Source of the DNA: Shigella phage ESh32 | Direction: 5' to 3' (one strand) | DNA: 64,000 bases | Sequence record: ON528742 | In this document: positions 2,650 to 11,587 of the stretch, piece after piece | Layout of the letters: every line of letters starts with the position of its first letter | Numbering within the stretch: position 1 is the first letter of the stretch | The notes under the pieces: model-generated | What the model was told of the DNA's origin: nothing | Databases searched by the model: none | Seen by the model: the letters and a program-made list of their open reading frames with translations, nothing else | Position numbers and translations under genes: made by a program

Positions 2650-3111
2650 ATGACTATCAATACAGAAGTTTTTATCCGTCGAAATAAGCTTCGTCGTCAC
2701 TTTGAGTCGGAGTTTCGTCAAATTAACAATGAGATTCGTGAAGCATCAAAAGCAGCAGGAGTCTCATCGTTTCATCTAAAATATTCTCAACATCTTCTTG
2801 ATCGTGCAATTCAACGGGAGATTGATGAGACATATGTTTTTGAATTATTCCATAAAATAAAAGACCATGTTTTAGAAGTTAATGAATTCCTGAGTATGCC
2901 TCCGCGTCCTGACATTGACGAGGATTTTATTGATGGGGTTGAATATCGTCCTGGACGTTTAGAAATCACAGATGGAAATCTTTGGCTTGGATTTACGGTT
3001 TGTAAACCTAATGAGAAGTTCAAAGACCCGTCACTTCAATGTAGGATGGCAATTATCAACAGTCGTCGTTTACCAGGAAAGGCTTCTAAAGCAGTAATTA
3101 AAACTCAATGA
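2650..3111 (+). CDS. regB: RegB site-specific endoribonuclease
   Basis: 153-aa ORF matches remembered T4 RegB (MTINTEVFIRRNKLRRHFESEFRQ...); AAGAGGAG RBS. Confidence 0.8.
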   Translation: MTINTEVFIRRNKLRRHFESEFRQINNEIREASKAAGVSSFHLKYSQHLLDRAIQREIDETYVFELFHKIKDHVLEVNEFLSMPPRPDIDEDFIDGVEYRPGRLEITDGNLWLGFTVCKPNEKFKDPSLQCRMAIINSRRLPGKASKAVIKTQ

Positions 3112-3118
3112 GGTAAGC

Positions 3119-3664
3119 ATGAGAAAAGCACTACTCGCTGGTCTATTGGCCATTTCAATGATGGCACATAGCTCCGAGCATACTTTCAGTAATGTCCAAC
3201 TCGATAACATGCGTTACGCGTATCAATTCGGGGAACAATTTTCTAAGGATGGAAAATATAAAACACACAAAAATATCCACAAGAGCGGATTAGGTCATAT
3301 AATGGCTGCTATTTTATGGCAAGAAAGCTCTGGCGGAGTTAATTTAAAATCTAAACCAAAGCATCACGCTTATGGAATGTTCCAAAATTATTTGCCTACT
3401 ATGCGAGCAAGAGTTAAGGAACTTGGTTATAATATGACCGATGCTGAAATAAAAAGAATGTTGAATAAACGGTCCAATTCAGCTTCCTGGGCGTACATTG
3501 AACTTTCTTATTGGTTAAATATACATAAGGGCGATATAAGAAAAGCAATATCCTCTTATAATTCGGGATGGAATGTTAAAGCTGGTTCTAAATATGCTTC
3601 TGAAGTCCTAGAAAAGGCTAATTACCTTAAAAATAATAAACTTTTGGAAATAGTAAATGACTAA
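3119..3664 (+). CDS. secreted lytic transglycosylase-like protein (SLT-like)
   Basis: N-terminal signal peptide MRKALLAGLLAISMMAHS; WQESSGG and YGMFQ motifs resembling SLT catalytic region. Confidence 0.55.
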   Translation: MRKALLAGLLAISMMAHSSEHTFSNVQLDNMRYAYQFGEQFSKDGKYKTHKNIHKSGLGHIMAAILWQESSGGVNLKSKPKHHAYGMFQNYLPTMRARVKELGYNMTDAEIKRMLNKRSNSASWAYIELSYWLNIHKGDIRKAISSYNSGWNVKAGSKYASEVLEKANYLKNNKLLEIVND

Positions 3665-6765: not shown

Positions 6766-6788
6766 AGTCTCCTTCGGGAGACTTTTTT
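6766..6788 (+). terminator. intrinsic terminator (UUCG-loop hairpin + T-tract)
   Basis: agtctccttcgggagact followed by tttttt. Confidence 0.7.
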
Positions 6789-6856: not shown

Positions 6857-7045
6857 ATGAAAATTGAAGCACTCAATCAAGAAGGAAATATCTACGTTAT
6901 CATTAATGGTGATTTTTTCGTCGACATGGATGAAGTTACTAGTGAAGAACTTGTAGAACTTCTTAAGAAACGTTATAATATGTGTGATGAAGTTGCAACT
7001 CACATGGCGTGTGCAATATTCTCTCTGTCATATGTGGTGGAATAA
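6857..7045 (+). CDS. hypothetical small protein
   Basis: ORF 6812..7045; ATG at 6857 preceded by AAGAGGAG. Confidence 0.5.
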
Positions 7046-7248
7046 TGATTAGTATAGAGCAAGCAGATAAAATCAAGGAATTAGTGGCTTCAATTCGTAA
7101 AGCAGATGAAGAGCTGATTGACTTTGCTTGGTATTCATCGGGTATTTCGAATAAAGGCATTAAAGACTTTGAAACTAAAGTGGATAATGCTTTAGAAGCG
7201 TTAGATATGTTTCTTGATGAAATTATCGATCATAATACGAGAGTTTAA
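7045..7248 (+). CDS. hypothetical small helical protein (tandem family member)
   Basis: ORF 7009..7248; ATG at 7045. Confidence 0.5.
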   Translation: MISIEQADKIKELVASIRKADEELIDFAWYSSGISNKGIKDFETKVDNALEALDMFLDEIIDHNTRV

Positions 7249-7250
7249 GT

Positions 7251-7445
7251 ATGCTAACACGTGAACAGTTTGAAAAAATCATTAAATTAGCACGTGATAT
7301 TGAAATAGATTCATACCAATTAGCAGTTGAGCATTGTGAAGGATATTCATACGACGGTATAGAAGCAGCTAAAAGAGATTTGGATAAATCCAAAGCTAAG
7401 TTAGTTCAATATCTTGAAATGATTAGGTGGAATAATGAAAACTGA
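7251..7445 (+). CDS. hypothetical small helical protein (tandem family member)
   Basis: 64-aa ORF MLTREQFEKIIKLARD... Confidence 0.5.
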   Translation: MLTREQFEKIIKLARDIEIDSYQLAVEHCEGYSYDGIEAAKRDLDKSKAKLVQYLEMIRWNNEN

Positions 7446-7608
7446 AAAGCAGATGTTTTTAATGAAGCTAATTGAAGAATATGCTAATGCAGTTTCTGAC
7501 TATGAGTATTCTGCTCGGGAAAGAGGTACGGCTTTCGCTAAAGAAGAATTGAAAATCATGGTTGATGCTCATACAAAGCTTCAGAATTTTATCGAAAACG
7601 TCATTTAA
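7435..7608 (+). CDS. hypothetical small helical protein (tandem family member)
   Basis: 57-codon ORF read from sequence: MKTEKQMFLMKLIEEYANAV... Confidence 0.4.
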   Translation: MKTEKQMFLMKLIEEYANAVSDYEYSARERGTAFAKEELKIMVDAHTKLQNFIENVI

Positions 7609-7610
7609 TG

Positions 7611-7640
7611 GTTTACAAGTTGGCAAGGTTATGGTATAGT
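7611..7640 (+). promoter_or_regulatory. T4-type early promoter
   Basis: gtttacaagttggcaaggttatggtatagt. Confidence 0.55.
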
Positions 7641-7668
7641 AATCTTGTCGACTGCCAAGGAGAAGAGA

Positions 7669-7773
7669 ATGAAAGTTTTGTTTGTTGTGTATGTGATGAT
7701 TCAATATAATTACCCAATGTTTACTTATAATTTGGTAAACAACATTATTGATATGATTCAGAGGAGTATGTAA
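7669..7773 (+). CDS. possible small hydrophobic peptide
   Basis: 34 codons with AAGGAG RBS after the promoter. Confidence 0.3.
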   Translation: MKVLFVVYVMIQYNYPMFTYNLVNNIIDMIQRSM

Positions 7774-7940
7774 TGACAAGTGAGCAGGCTTTTAAATTAA
7801 GAGAATTAATTGAGACGTATAGTAAAGCTGTTCATACATCAACAATTATTGATGAATCAGCTTTCTCCGGACATGCTAACAAGATTAAATACAAAACTCT
7901 TATGGAAGAAGCTAAAGTAAATCTTGATTCTTATATTTAA
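7773..7940 (+). CDS. hypothetical small helical protein (tandem family member)
   Basis: 55-codon ORF MTSEQAFKLRELIETYSKAV...; TAATG overlap. Confidence 0.4.
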   Translation: MTSEQAFKLRELIETYSKAVHTSTIIDESAFSGHANKIKYKTLMEEAKVNLDSYI

Positions 7941-7959
7941 ACTTTAATTGGTAAATAAT

Positions 7960-8502
7960 ATGAAAGCTGTAATTGAAACAACTGATTTGTTCGGTGACTT
8001 AGTTATCGAAAAACGCGGTAATGTATACGTTCTGACGCAGGAAGACGATAGTATTACTATTCTTCCTATGGAACTGGCTGCGATTTTATCTTATGCTCCC
8101 TCAGGAGTTACCGGTGTAACTAATATTACAGGTGACCTCCAAGTTCGTTTTTATCGTGGCCTTTACGGCGGTAATATTGAAACTGAATTTATGTGTCTTT
8201 CTATCAGCAATTGGGCAACATTCGTTGTCAAGGTGAAAGAATTCTTAGAATCTGAAACAGTCGAAACACCCGAAAAGGCTAAACTTCAATGGGCTAAAGA
8301 TCGCGGTGCTAACATTATTAATCCAGTAGCTGCAAATTATACTACGACTTTGGATGTCAAGACTTCTTATGAAGATGGCGATGTCGTACTTGTTCGCCAA
8401 AATGATGATTCTCGAGCACATATTGTCACATTTACCAAAGACGAAGCTATTGCGCTAAAGACTTATCTTGATTCTGTCATTCCAACTATGATTTCAAAGT
8501 GA
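7960..8502 (+). CDS. hypothetical protein (paralog of 8509..9030)
   Basis: ORF 7948..8502 (TTG at 7948); ATG at 7960; C-terminus ...EAIALKTYLDSVIPTMISK. Confidence 0.55.
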   Translation: MKAVIETTDLFGDLVIEKRGNVYVLTQEDDSITILPMELAAILSYAPSGVTGVTNITGDLQVRFYRGLYGGNIETEFMCLSISNWATFVVKVKEFLESETVETPEKAKLQWAKDRGANIINPVAANYTTTLDVKTSYEDGDVVLVRQNDDSRAHIVTFTKDEAIALKTYLDSVIPTMISK

Positions 8503-8508
8503 GGAAAT

Positions 8509-9030
8509 ATGTTTATTTCAAGTGGAAGTGGTTTAATTCGTGTTGAATTTAAAAATGATATTTTCCTTATTCAAGGAGATGATATTATTAAAATGAGTTA
8601 TGATGAAATCAAGAAAATTTGTCATACTCTTGAAAGCCGTGGAAACGTAAATGCTGTTATTGACATTGGTGATTTATGGGTAACGCTTTATGAAGTATCC
8701 GAAGGATTTAATATTGAAGATGAAAATAACATTTTAGCTATTGATAAAAGAACTGATTTGTTTGATGTATTAAAAGCCTATGAACAGTCAAATGGTGGAA
8801 GAAAAGCTGTATTGATTTATCAAAAACCACATTCATGCGGAACTGCTTCAATCATTTCAAATATTGAAGGCGAAGCTGATACTTATATGTGTGTTTTAAA
8901 AGCTGGTGGTGACCGTCATCCGGATTTTATTTCTATTCGTCAAAACAATGGAGAAATTTCATTATCAAAATCAGAAGCTGAAGCTATGATTAAGTATTTA
9001 ACAACTGTTACGCCTTCAATGAAAGGATAA
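8509..9030 (+). CDS. hypothetical protein (paralog of 7960..8502)
   Basis: 173 aa; C-terminus ...EAEAMIKYLTTVTPSMKG parallels upstream gene. Confidence 0.55.
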   Translation: MFISSGSGLIRVEFKNDIFLIQGDDIIKMSYDEIKKICHTLESRGNVNAVIDIGDLWVTLYEVSEGFNIEDENNILAIDKRTDLFDVLKAYEQSNGGRKAVLIYQKPHSCGTASIISNIEGEADTYMCVLKAGGDRHPDFISIRQNNGEISLSKSEAEAMIKYLTTVTPSMKG

Positions 9031-9032
9031 TT

Positions 9033-9494
9033 ATGATTATTAATGAAAATTCTTGGCATTATAAATTATTCAAATTGTTTAACGATGAATGGCAACGACC
9101 TAAGACACTATGCGCATATTTTTGGTCTATTGCCATTCCTACATTTTTCGTTTCTATTTTTGGATGTACTATACTCGTAGGGCTAACAATTATTTGTGCA
9201 GAAAGCCTACAACGTTGGCTTATTTTCGGTAGTTTATGGACTCTTCTTCCATCGGCATTTATATTTGCGCTTTTGGCTGTTTTACTTATTATTGGTTCAT
9301 TTGTTATTCCTGTACATTTGCGTGAAAAATATAAAGATTATAAATGGAAAAAGGATTATGCTTTACACGTAGAAAACATTGATAGGAAAAATAAAGGTTT
9401 ACCTCCTATTCAACCCAAGAAATCGATTATCGTTGAATTTTTAAAAGCTCGTAAAGCTAAAGTATGTCCTGTTATTGAATATAAGGCTGAATGA
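9033..9494 (+). CDS. integral membrane protein
   Basis: 153 aa with at least three hydrophobic helices. Confidence 0.55.
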   Translation: MIINENSWHYKLFKLFNDEWQRPKTLCAYFWSIAIPTFFVSIFGCTILVGLTIICAESLQRWLIFGSLWTLLPSAFIFALLAVLLIIGSFVIPVHLREKYKDYKWKKDYALHVENIDRKNKGLPPIQPKKSIIVEFLKARKAKVCPVIEYKAE

Positions 9495-10504
9495 TGAAAA
9501 CAGTAATGAAAAGCTATTTTGGTAGTCATCTTTATGGAACTTCTACTCCAGAATCGGATGTAGATTTTAAAGAAATTTTTGTTCCTCCTGCTCGTGATAT
9601 TCTTATCGGAAACGTTAAAGATCATATGAGCAAAAACACTAACAACACATCATCTAAAAACACTAAAGATGATATTGACCATGAACTATACAGTCTTAAA
9701 TATTTCTTTAAATTAGCAGCAGATGGTGAAACCGTAGCATTAGATATGCTCCACACTCCACCTGAACTAGTAGTTAAATCTGATTTGCCTGATGTGTGGA
9801 AGTTTATTCAAGACAACCGTTCTCGTTTTTATACGACTAACATGAAATCATATTTAGGATATGTCCGCAAGCAAGCTTCTAAATACGGTGTCAAAGGTTC
9901 TCGTTTGGCTGCATTACGTGATGTATTGAAAGTAGTTAATCAAATCCCTGAGCAGTGGATTGATTACCAAGAAGATGGTTCTATTAAGCAGCGTCGCACT
10001 AAAGTTGAAGATATTAAGCATCGTCTTCCAGAAAACGAATTCTGTGAATGGGTGTTCCATAATCATGAGAAAACAGGCCCACAAACGTTCTACACTGTGT
10101 TGGGTCGTAAATATCAGACAACGCTTTCTCTTATTGAGCTTAAGCAGTCACTGAACAGATTAGATGCTGAATATGGTGAACGTGCTCGTAAGGCCGAAGC
10201 CAATGAAGGCATTGACTGGAAAGCTTTGAGTCATGCTTGTCGTGGTGGACTTCAATTATTGGAAATTTACAAAACTGGTGACTTAGTATATCCACTCCAA
10301 GATGCTCCCTTTATTCTCGACGTGAAGTTGGGTAAGCATCCATTTAAAACGGTTCAAGAGTTTTTGGAAGATGTGGTCGATCAAGTAGAAGCAGCATCTA
10401 CTGAAGCTTCTAAGAACGGTATGCAGCAAAAAGTAGACATGAGTTTTTGGGATGACTTCCTTGAGAAGGTCTATCTTGAAAACCACCGAAGTTATTATAA
10501 ATGA
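9491..10504 (+). CDS. Pol-beta-superfamily nucleotidyltransferase-like protein
   Basis: FGSHLYGTSTPESDVDF fits the GS-x9-13-DxD nucleotidyltransferase motif; 337 aa. Confidence 0.55.
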   Translation: MMKTVMKSYFGSHLYGTSTPESDVDFKEIFVPPARDILIGNVKDHMSKNTNNTSSKNTKDDIDHELYSLKYFFKLAADGETVALDMLHTPPELVVKSDLPDVWKFIQDNRSRFYTTNMKSYLGYVRKQASKYGVKGSRLAALRDVLKVVNQIPEQWIDYQEDGSIKQRRTKVEDIKHRLPENEFCEWVFHNHEKTGPQTFYTVLGRKYQTTLSLIELKQSLNRLDAEYGERARKAEANEGIDWKALSHACRGGLQLLEIYKTGDLVYPLQDAPFILDVKLGKHPFKTVQEFLEDVVDQVEAASTEASKNGMQQKVDMSFWDDFLEKVYLENHRSYYK

Positions 10505-10505
10505 T

Positions 10506-10531
10506 AGGGAGCCTTCGGGCTCCCTTTTTTA
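10506..10531 (+). terminator. intrinsic terminator
   Basis: agggagccttcgggctccct + tttttt. Confidence 0.8.
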
Positions 10532-10554
10532 TTTCAAAAATTTTTCACAAAGTT

Positions 10555-10584
10555 GTTTACAAGCATAAAGCTTTATGGTACTAT
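10555..10584 (+). promoter_or_regulatory. T4-type early promoter with A/T-rich upstream element (cassette copy A)
   Basis: aaaaatttttcacaaagttgtttacaag ... atggtactat. Confidence 0.6.
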
Positions 10585-10618
10585 ACAACTATCAACTGAT
10601 ACGGATTTGGAGAATAAA

Positions 10619-11587
10619 ATGAAAACTGTAACTATCAATAAGGGTATCTACTTCGGTAAAGAAATCTCTGGAACTTTTGAGCTCTTAGGCGAATGGTTCC
10701 CAGATAATGCTCCGGTAGATGCACAAGGAGATGGTAAAGTTTTTGTTGAAATTGACGGTAAACGTCGCGGTGTTTGGGTTTACAAATCAGACATTTCATA
10801 TGATGGTGTAAAAGTTGAAGAAGTTAAAGAATCATATGAAGATATGAAAACCCGCATTAATAAAAGATTTAATGTTATGGGAATGATGACGAATGGTATT
10901 ATTAACGGAAACATTCGTTCATTAATTATCTCTGGTGCGGCGGGTATTGGTAAAACGTATTCTTTAGATAAAGCTTTAAATAAAGCAAATGATATTGGAT
11001 ACATTGAATATAAAAGCATTAACGGTAAAATCTCCGGTATCGGTCTTTATGAGCAGCTTTGGAATAATCGTGAAGAGAATTCTGTCCTTTTGATTGATGA
11101 TGTGGATGTTTTCTCTGATATGGACATTCTTAATCTTCTGAAAGCTGCTCTGGACACCGGAGAGACCCGTAAAGTCTGCTGGAGCACCGCATCTTCTTAC
11201 TTAGAAGAAAAAGGCATTGAGCGTGAGTTTGAATTTAAAGGAACGATTGTTTTTATCACAAACGTTGACATTGACCGCGAATTAGACCGTGGTACTAAAC
11301 TTGCTCCACATTTACAAGCATTAGTGTCCCGCTCAGTTTATTTGGATTTGGGTGTTCACACTAATGAAGAAATTATGGTCAGGGTTGAAGATGTTATTCT
11401 TTCAACTGACATGATGCAAAAGCGCGGTCTTTCTGATGAAGAAACTTATAAAGCATTATCATGGATGAAAGTCAATGTTAATCGTTTACGCAATGTTTCA
11501 CTGCGTACTGCTCTTTATCTTGCTGACTTTATTATGACCGACAAAAACGGTTGGGAAGAAATTGCTGAAACGGTATTATTAAAATGA
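10619..11587 (+). CDS. AAA+/P-loop ATPase
   Basis: Walker A GAAGIGKTY, Walker B VLLIDDVD; ATG at 10619 after GGAG in the conserved leader. Confidence 0.65.
   Translation: MKTVTINKGIYFGKEISGTFELLGEWFPDNAPVDAQGDGKVFVEIDGKRRGVWVYKSDISYDGVKVEEVKESYEDMKTRINKRFNVMGMMTNGIINGNIRSLIISGAAGIGKTYSLDKALNKANDIGYIEYKSINGKISGIGLYEQLWNNREENSVLLIDDVDVFSDMDILNLLKAALDTGETRKVCWSTASSYLEEKGIEREFEFKGTIVFITNVDIDRELDRGTKLAPHLQALVSRSVYLDLGVHTNEEIMVRVEDVILSTDMMQKRGLSDEETYKALSWMKVNVNRLRNVSLRTALYLADFIMTDKNGWEEIAETVLLK

Follow-up and report, generated by a model that had tools for sequence, protein, structure and literature searches.

The adjacent ORFs A (7960..8502, + strand) and B (8509..9030, + strand) of Shigella phage ESh32 are, as their sequences indicate, real and ancient tandem paralogs of the MobD.1 / T4_y05I family. 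All positions refer to the window, i.e., the whole stretch of 64,000 nucleotides of sequence record ON528742 that was analyzed. In the overall explanation that we favor, with a confidence only a little above even, these paralogs form a dispensable accessory module. The pair itself is already known: it is common, annotated, represented in curated Pfam families, and dispensable in the laboratory. It is not specific to ESh32, being the standard Tequatrovirus arrangement that was already annotated as mobD.1a/mobD.1 in phage ime09, and the duplication in itself is therefore of little weight. What the analysis adds is a concrete structural idea for a “dark-matter” family, namely three predicted PUR-like repeats, an acidic character, and an obligatory-looking membrane-protein partner. 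The locus also offers a compact example of T-even accessory-region evolution, in which repeat duplication, gene duplication, inter-genus allele swapping, paralog fusion, and the replacement of two genes by a homing endonuclease (leaving a 19-nt remnant) appear side by side.

Similarity and domain architecture of ORFs A and B

Both ORFs lie exactly where a preliminary description of this DNA had placed them, with ATG codons at 7960 and 8509 and stop codons at 8500-8502 and 9028-9030. They are encoded on the same strand and separated by a spacer of 6 nt, and a strong GAGGAAA ribosome-binding site precedes B. ORF A (180 aa) is the slot-1 paralog of the MobD.1 family, with an N domain at residues 4-100 and a C domain at residues 108-177. 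ORF B (173 aa) is the slot-2 paralog, with the corresponding domains at residues 2-95 and 102-171.

The preliminary description had proposed, from shared N- and C-terminal segments, that the two genes arose by local duplication followed by divergence, and had named pairwise alignment and synteny comparison as checks. The alignment was significant: BLASTP aligned A and B colinearly over 173 columns, nearly the full length of both proteins, at 29% identity (E=2e-8), and the four terminal peptide segments cited as shared indeed paired up within it. The Smith-Waterman score of 96 compared with 30.1 +/- 5.0 (maximum 65) across 2000 composition-preserving shuffles (z=13). Both proteins matched the same two curated Pfam domains, PF24449 T4_y05I_N (A, 107.5 bits, E 6e-31; B, 115.6 bits, E 2e-33; gathering score 24.9) and PF24448 T4_y05I_C (A, 63.3 bits, E 3e-17; B, 82.7 bits, E 2e-23; gathering score 27), and both matched PHROG 1502 over its full length (A, E 4e-66; B, E 8e-67). 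A and B are thus adjacent, on the same strand, similar and colinear over their full length, and identical in domain order, as tandem paralogs should be. A chance or compositional artefact of AT-rich phage genes, for which only the low identity speaks, is practically eliminated by the shuffle test, the full-length colinearity, and the two shared domains, with E values around or below 1e-17.

At the DNA level, comparison of A with B revealed nothing significant beyond a single in-register remnant of 16 nt at the NIExE motif (8172-8187 versus 8709-8724). Given this loss of DNA similarity and the 29% amino acid identity, the duplication is old. The head-to-tail arrangement of two genes with the same two domains is supported as the residue expected from a local duplication and long divergence.

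Genomic context and transcription unit

The window belongs to a Tequatrovirus and, over positions 7000-10500, shares 97.7% identity with phage NBEco003. The map of this region in T4 reads tk - rI.1 - rI - rI.-1 - mobD.5...mobD.2 - mobD.1 - mobD - nrdC.11, and the order in the window is mobD.2, ORF A, ORF B, ORF C, nrdC.11. The A/B pair therefore occupies the T4-like family position, between the rI/mobD.2-5 genes and nrdC.11, within the non-essential tk-rI-nrdC.11 accessory region. The synteny comparison with related phages confirmed that the pair is the usual arrangement in Tequatrovirus and revealed that the slot varies between genera. Both genes lie on what we take to be the prereplicative strand of T4.

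Directly upstream of A lies the mobD.2-position gene (7773..7940, + strand; 55 aa, Pfam DUF7438, E 6e-14), which is part of a variable cassette described below. Downstream of B, ORF C (9033..9494, + strand) encodes a small basic membrane protein of 153 aa (PHROG 944; 2-3 hydrophobic segments, pI 9.5). It is followed by the nrdC.11 homolog (9491..10504, + strand), a RlaP-type nucleotidyltransferase (NTase) of 337 aa (PF10127 RlaP, E 2e-11; PHROG 388), whose start overlaps the ORF C stop.

The five genes from mobD.2 through A, B, and C to nrdC.11 are apparently transcribed as one unit, of which nrdC.11 is the last gene; stop-to-start distances within it are 2-6 nt or overlapping. A candidate sigma-70 / T4-early-like promoter (7612..7640, + strand; TTTACA-17-TATAGT with an extended -10 TG) lies upstream of all five genes. 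It agrees with the consensus at 10 of 12 positions, as a pattern match only, in a region where the number of such sites is not above that in shuffles. A terminator-like hairpin (10506..10525, + strand; 8 bp stem with 6 GC pairs and a T-run, a pattern match) follows nrdC.11, at a position equivalent to that of an annotated terminator in phage WFL6982. Together with a second terminator-like hairpin at 6766-6783, again a pattern match only, it brackets the unit. Rfam returned no matches across the whole window.

Family range and the adjacent membrane protein

The MobD.1 / T4_y05I family is, by profile search, confined to T4-like phages (Straboviridae). Across 1.84 billion representative proteins, the search recovered only 29 family matches, of which a few were full-length and about a dozen were stand-alone C-domain proteins of 65-87 aa. 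The contexts examined for these matches all belonged to T4-like phages, at the same locus, and a word-index homolog search recovered close relatives only.

Gene order around the family is regular. All 16 loci that a motif-based scan recovered from IMG/VR have an ORF C homolog directly after the family ORF, be this ORF short or full length, and the nrdC.11 NTase lies downstream in 15 of them. Similarly, ORF C was found directly 3' of the family ORF in every examined annotated locus that retains ORF C, which T4 does not.

Copy number and gene replacement at the locus

The number of copies at this slot varies among genera, with one in Mosigvirus and Dhakavirus and two in most Tequatrovirus phages. 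About 430 Tequatrovirus records carry both A and B. Some 430 phage records contain ORF B at 92% identity or more, and 426 contain an ORF C of the type found in the window at 80% or more; MobD, at 95% identity or more, occurs in only 47. Dhakavirus (JS10, Bp7, VR5, SHP1) and Mosigvirus (WFL6982, LF82-8) have a single full-length copy, behind which come the membrane-protein gene and nrdC.11. Homology between Mosigvirus and the window runs through A to 8491 and returns at 9023, a jump from which it follows that ORF B is absent from Mosigvirus as a precise unit. B-type sequences were found in slot 2 of Tequatrovirus only.

In T4, the MobD homing-endonuclease gene evidently displaced B and C, and A alone was kept. 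Past the mobD.1 stop, homology between T4 and the window continues through the ribosome-binding site of B and the first 19 nt of B (ATGTTTATTTCAAGTGGAA). The mobD cassette follows this remnant, and homology returns at 9490, one base before the start codon of nrdC.11. The retention of B's ribosome-binding site and 19 nt implies that the A+B+C state is ancestral to T4 and that the endonuclease gene replaced B and C.

Further rearrangements were detected elsewhere. P0011 and phage SP21535 carry an A/B fusion gene that joins the N domain of a T4-type A to the C domain of B, and the T2 record contains only fragments of the genes, despite DNA that is 96% identical. In the Citrobacter phages CF1 and Moon, two C-domain genes of 78 and 76-77 aa stand in tandem and match each other at E 7e-8. 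Their close relative Merlin, which is 91-95% identical to them in DNA across the locus, lacks exactly the second of these genes. Moonvirus thus doubled a short, C-domain-only version independently, and the comparison of the CF1/Moon pair with the single Merlin gene indicates that tandem doubling ahead of the membrane gene occurred at least twice.

Allele exchange in slot 1 and selection on both paralogs

A hypervariable cassette (7785..8367, + strand) spans most of mobD.2 and the first ~136 codons of ORF A, and is represented by unrelated alleles among Tequatrovirus genomes that are otherwise ~95% identical. In blastn comparisons with T4, T2, and ime09, homology was lost at 7784 and regained at 8368, with flanks 92-96% identical. 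In tblastn searches, ORF A homologs fell into identity classes of about 100, 76, 67, 47, and 35%. The class at 60-80% identity corresponds to the Mosigvirus gene, to whose single copy A is 67-76% identical. Compared with Mosigvirus LF82-8, dS was 0.52 for ORF A versus 1.26-2.4 for the flanking ORF C, nrdC.11, and rI. This difference indicates that the cassette was exchanged between genera relatively recently.

A recombination boundary also lies between the two paralogs, since ORF A is 100% identical in nucleotides to its NBEco003 counterpart, while ORF B is 94.6% identical. Both paralogs are kept by purifying selection, with dN/dS estimates of 0.11-0.15 for ORF B and 0.26-0.31 for ORF A.

Origin of the duplication

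Neighbor-joining trees of the full-length proteins, the N domains, and the C domains revealed three well-supported clades: A, B, and Dhakavirus together with P0051. The A clade consists of a subclade uniting the window with Mosigvirus and a T4-type subclade. The simplest reading of these data is that the duplication would have occurred in situ, in the Tequatrovirus stem, and was followed by fast divergence.

The main alternative is that B is a diverged homolog that recombined in from another T4-like lineage, or that the duplication predates the split of Tequatrovirus, Mosigvirus, and Dhakavirus, with later loss of B. We regard this as a serious possibility, although not the likelier course. 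While the three clades are well supported, their branching order received bootstrap values of only 9-48%, whether the trees were built from full-length proteins or from single domains, and B shows much the same identity (25-31%) to A as to the Dhakavirus copy. The locus is, moreover, a recombination hot spot, as the unequal identities of A and B to NBEco003 attest, and the A cassette has evidently moved between genera. Against insertion, no donor with a B-like single copy was found among the 1.84 billion representatives or 50,697 phage records; the tandem, same-strand, unit-length layout is the simplest signature of duplication; and Moonvirus, with a tandem doubling of its own, demonstrates that such events happen at this slot. 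The preliminary description therefore holds as far as true head-to-tail paralogs of the same two-domain architecture are concerned, and its “local” origin is the part that the low bootstrap values leave less secure.

Dispensability and a possible role in counter-defense

In transposon sequencing, T4 mobD.1 and the Bas37 genes 0207, 0208, and 0209 were classed as non-essential (10.1101/2025.11.20.689424, supplement). By coordinates and lengths, bas37_0209, 0208, and 0207 correspond to A, B, and C, respectively. In agreement, the block from nrdC.11 to mobD.3 can be deleted in T4 (PMC9825161). Several neighbors in the same island counteract host defenses: nrdC.5 counters Dsr1 (PMC9391042), and nrdC.1 and a homolog of nrdC.8 are reported to counter Septu and Druantia III, respectively (10.1101/2025.11.20.689424). 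Since the island holds three recently found counter-defense genes, A, B, and C are reasonable candidates for a host-range screen.

It is conceivable, though we consider it somewhat improbable, that A and B themselves constitute a counter-defense (anti-immunity) or inter-phage competition module, with diverged copies and alleles tracking host defense variants. Beyond the company of nrdC.5, nrdC.1, and nrdC.8, this possibility draws on the dispensability of both genes in laboratory hosts, on the allelic hypervariability of the N-terminal cassette within near-identical genomes, and on the small size and acidity of the proteins, which resemble those of many phage decoys. It is weakened by the HIDEN-SEQ study, whose main text names no conditional phenotype for bas37_0207-0209 or mobD.1 and in one of whose comparisons the log2 fold change of these genes was near 0 (10.1101/2025.11.20.689424). 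Similarly, dN/dS stays below 0.35, with no positive selection at the whole-gene level, and neither protein resembles any known anti-defense protein. None of the PADLOC defense-system models matched A, B, C, or nrdC.11, even with E values up to 1 admitted.

The counter-defense proposal overlaps with the accessory module that we favor and adds a specific functional claim to it. The anti-Druantia gene bas37_0203 was considered as a homolog of A or B and rejected, as its coordinates are those of the gene at the nrdC.8 position. In the literature, MobD.1 was found in a single paper and only as a map landmark, and searches for “y05I” and the Pfam accessions retrieved no relevant paper.

Predicted structure and the nucleic-acid-binding alternative

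AF2 models of both proteins predict three bbbb-alpha repeats, the first two making up the N domain and the third the C domain, in a bbbb-alpha-linker-bbbb-alpha topology. The pLDDT of the ORF A model is 74 overall (about 88 in the N domain and about 55 in the C domain), and that of ORF B, which has the same three-repeat topology, is 86. Profile-profile comparison (hhalign) matched repeat 1 to repeat 3 with a probability of 92.5% (E 4.7e-7) and detected no sequence similarity between repeat 2 and the other repeats. Comparing the N- and C-terminal halves by plain Smith-Waterman was not significant (p=0.01 for A and no signal for B or T4 MobD.1). This internal repeat qualifies the use of the shared terminal motifs as a trace of gene duplication: they do align from A to B, but part of their likeness stems from the resemblance between repeats 1 and 3. 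Searches of all six-frame ORFs with HMMs for the N domain and for repeats 1 and 3 retrieved no additional repeat copies in the 64-kb window.

Among PDB structures, the highest-probability Foldseek matches were PUR repeat III (5fgo, 8chw; probability 1.0), PURA repeats I-II (3k44, 8chv), and SsgA/SsgB (3cm1, 6slc). For both models, the best E values against the PDB were 0.02-0.07 and none fell below 1e-3; PUR and SsgB probabilities were 0.5-1.0, and TM-scores were at most 0.65, on small targets only. Foldseek against BFVD returned only family members and uncharacterised Bacillus-phage proteins, and a sequence search of the PDB with the family profile yielded two irrelevant matches only (E above 0.5).

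The predicted layout of A and B matches that of Pur-alpha, in which a two-repeat PC4/Whirly-like domain is joined by one further repeat that would fold only by pairing with another copy. Pur-alpha is the sole known protein in which an intramolecular two-repeat domain occurs alongside a third repeat that dimerises, and a lone repeat of this PC4-like kind is considered unlikely to fold by itself (PMC7549692). From these two considerations, the C domain and the stand-alone C-domain proteins may be expected to dimerise.

The same resemblance invites a different functional interpretation, in which A and B are PUR/Whirly/PC4-like factors that bind ssDNA or RNA and act on phage or host nucleic acids, perhaps with the RlaP-type RNA-repair NTase. 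The predicted topology, bbbb-alpha-linker-bbbb-alpha followed by a third repeat, is that of Pur-alpha, PUR entries rank with the Foldseek matches of highest probability, the Pfam label reads “putative transcription factor”, and the genes are apparently co-transcribed, with overlapping stop and start codons, with a RlaP-family NTase. We nevertheless consider this interpretation unlikely. Every protein of the family is acidic overall, and its two-repeat N domain, the part that binds nucleic acids in Pur-alpha, has a pI of 4.2-5.2 and a net charge of -5 to -13 in every lineage; by this charge proxy alone, the N domains do not present a basic nucleic-acid-binding surface. None of the structural matches is statistically significant, and the PurA, Whirly, and PC4 families gave no Pfam match even at E up to 10. 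Furthermore, SsgA and SsgB, which share the fold, bind protein rather than nucleic acid. SsgB uses its PC4-like fold for protein-protein recruitment, and its localisation is controlled by the membrane protein SepG (PMC8061694).

A possible mechanism for the accessory module

Within the dispensable accessory module that we favor, our best guess at a mechanism, which we offer tentatively, is that A and B are dimerising, protein-binding components that act with the membrane protein. The C-terminal repeat would be the ancestral unit and is predicted to dimerise, forming homodimers or, where both genes occur, A-B heterodimers. Its invariant TKxEA...YLxxVIPTM end may act together with the always-adjacent membrane protein. 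The acidic and fast-swapping N domain could provide a protein-binding or decoy surface for a variable host or competitor target, rather than a surface for binding nucleic acids. Two diverged copies would then widen the range of targets, as in other phage accessory and counter-defense islands. We infer dimerisation, A-B heterodimers, and the membrane-protein contact; the genetics and the anatomy of the locus are what we observed. T4 gets by with A as its only copy and lacks the membrane protein, and cooperation among A, B, and C is thus not obligatory. The HIDEN-SEQ results, the Foldseek scores short of significance, the missing sequence link to the PUR, Whirly, and PC4 families, and the low confidence of the C domain in the ORF A model count against this scheme as well.

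In its most elaborate form, which we rate as a long shot, this scheme would describe an acidic, phage-specific version of the Pur-alpha architecture, in which the C repeat docks on a dedicated membrane protein and paralog heterodimers extend recognition across a variable target in the host, for instance a defense or envelope component. If true, it would represent a new two-component, soluble-plus-membrane module for host interaction, conserved across Tevenvirinae.

Comparison with known systems

The Pur-alpha / PC4-like / Whirly superfold offers the closest structural parallel, through the three bbbb-alpha repeats, i.e., a two-repeat N domain and one C-terminal repeat, predicted in A and B. 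The Borrelia Pur-alpha homodimer parallels the stand-alone single-repeat relatives of the MobD.1 family, and the paralogs Pur-alpha and Pur-beta have been described as heterodimerising. In contrast to Pur-alpha, the phage proteins are acidic rather than basic, and their repeat 3 has five predicted strands. We thus treat the PUR/PC4-like resemblance as an analogy rather than a demonstrated membership.

A second likeness concerns the Pfam family DUF7189, which comprises T4-like phage proteins of ~55-68 aa. Of its 32 members, 14 match the MobD.1 family weakly (best E 1.6e-5), the matching segment being the beta-hairpin-plus-helix motif of either repeat 1 or repeat 3, and a distant T4-like contig (L012) has DUF7189 genes immediately 5' of its y05I gene. 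The matches are under the Pfam gathering score, and DUF7189 proteins differ in having a single short unit each. No DUF7189 member was identified among the neighboring ORFs of the window that were scanned against Pfam.

Among the closest relatives is T4 MobD.1 (Y05I_BPT4), which shares the two-domain architecture, the length of ~175-185 aa, and the place between mobD.2 and nrdC.11. ORF A is 46% identical to it over the full length (E 2e-55), with an identical 18-residue C-terminus, and is its ortholog; ORF B is 26% identical. The allele class of ORF A is nearer to the Mosigvirus gene than to T4 MobD.1, and T4 carries one copy, the mobD endonuclease cassette having taken the place of ORF B and the membrane-protein gene. 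The closest match in organization is provided by mobD.1a/mobD.1 of ime09 and bas37_0209/bas37_0208 of the BASEL phage Bas37. In both phages the two genes keep the order seen here, and the same membrane-protein gene and then nrdC.11 come after them. The ime09 counterpart of ORF B shares 92% identity with it, whereas the slot-1 gene of ime09 and Bas37 is a T4-type allele, only 49% identical to ORF A.

Replacement and loss around the ORF A/ORF B slot

In phage T4, which keeps the ORF A ortholog mobD.1, we found that the stop codon of this gene is followed by the ORF B ribosome-binding site and the first 19 nt of ORF B, after which the mobD homing-endonuclease cassette starts. Homology with the window returns at position 9490, one base 5' of the nrdC.11 start codon (remnant and junction at window 8503-8527 and 9490; T4 locus L004, 1809-1884). 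The remnant, together with the point at which homology returns, shows that MobD replaced both ORF B and ORF C, as opposed to having been cleanly inserted between genes. ORF C (9033-9494) encodes a membrane protein that is small and basic and has conserved ends (N-terminus MIINxNSWHYK, C-terminus KxCPxIEYK), and at all examined loci retaining ORF C, it lies 3' of a y05I-family gene, the family to which ORFs A and B belong. In the phage T2 record (LC348380), both family genes are annotated as fragments only (97, 57, and 63 aa; locus L005, 2052-3019), although T2 and the window share ~96% identity at the DNA level from 8368 onward. Either the genes have truly become pseudogenes in T2, or frameshift errors in LC348380 account for the fragments.

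Recombination and copy-number changes

Shigella phage SP21535 carries a natural chimera, in which a T4-type ORF A N domain is joined to an ORF B C domain and the pair is collapsed into one gene (locus L008, 2480-3019; protein P0011). P0011 provides evidence for recombination between the two paralogs. Copy number also varies among Citrobacter phages: in CF1 and Moon, the membrane-protein gene is preceded by two stand-alone C-domain genes in tandem (L016 and L018, each 3001-3457), and Merlin (L017, 3001-3237) is without exactly the second of these. This difference is a copy-number polymorphism that arose independently at the slot where ORF A/B lie in the window.

A hypervariable cassette comprising mobD.2 and about three-quarters of ORF A spans 7785-8367, within surrounding DNA that is ~95% identical among Tequatrovirus. 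The dS relative to Mosigvirus is 0.52 for the window's cassette allele, whereas it is 1.26-2.4 for the flanking genes; this lower divergence suggests that the cassette was exchanged between genera.

We also observed a 29-nt direct repeat, 76% identical between its copies (7921-7949 and 8465-8493), located at the 3' ends of mobD.2 (..NLDSYI*) and ORF A (..YLDSVIPTM), which may reflect chance or the trace of an old recombination joint.

Neighboring genes and promoter patterns

Directly upstream of the ORF A/B pair lies a second tandem paralog array (7045-7940), composed of four consecutive ~55-67 aa paralogs that all match Pfam DUF7438 (E 6e-14 to 3e-17) and occupy the mobD.4 (7045-7248), mobD.3 (7251-7445), mobD.2a (7435-7608), and mobD.2 (7773-7940) positions. 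Further downstream, the nrdC.10 homolog (10553-11587; 344 aa as listed from a TTG start) gave sub-threshold matches only, to AAA/STAND-type NTPase families (best E 6.5e-5). Several phage records label it "thioredoxin", which looks like an annotation error propagated by copying.

Across the whole window, MotA-box-like middle-promoter patterns (TGCTTNA, 11-13 nt, TANNNT) were enriched, with 17 matches compared with 4.9 expected, and the late-promoter core TATAAATA was rare (2 matches, 10.4 expected). The excess of the former and scarcity of the latter fit a part of a T-even genome that holds early and middle genes.
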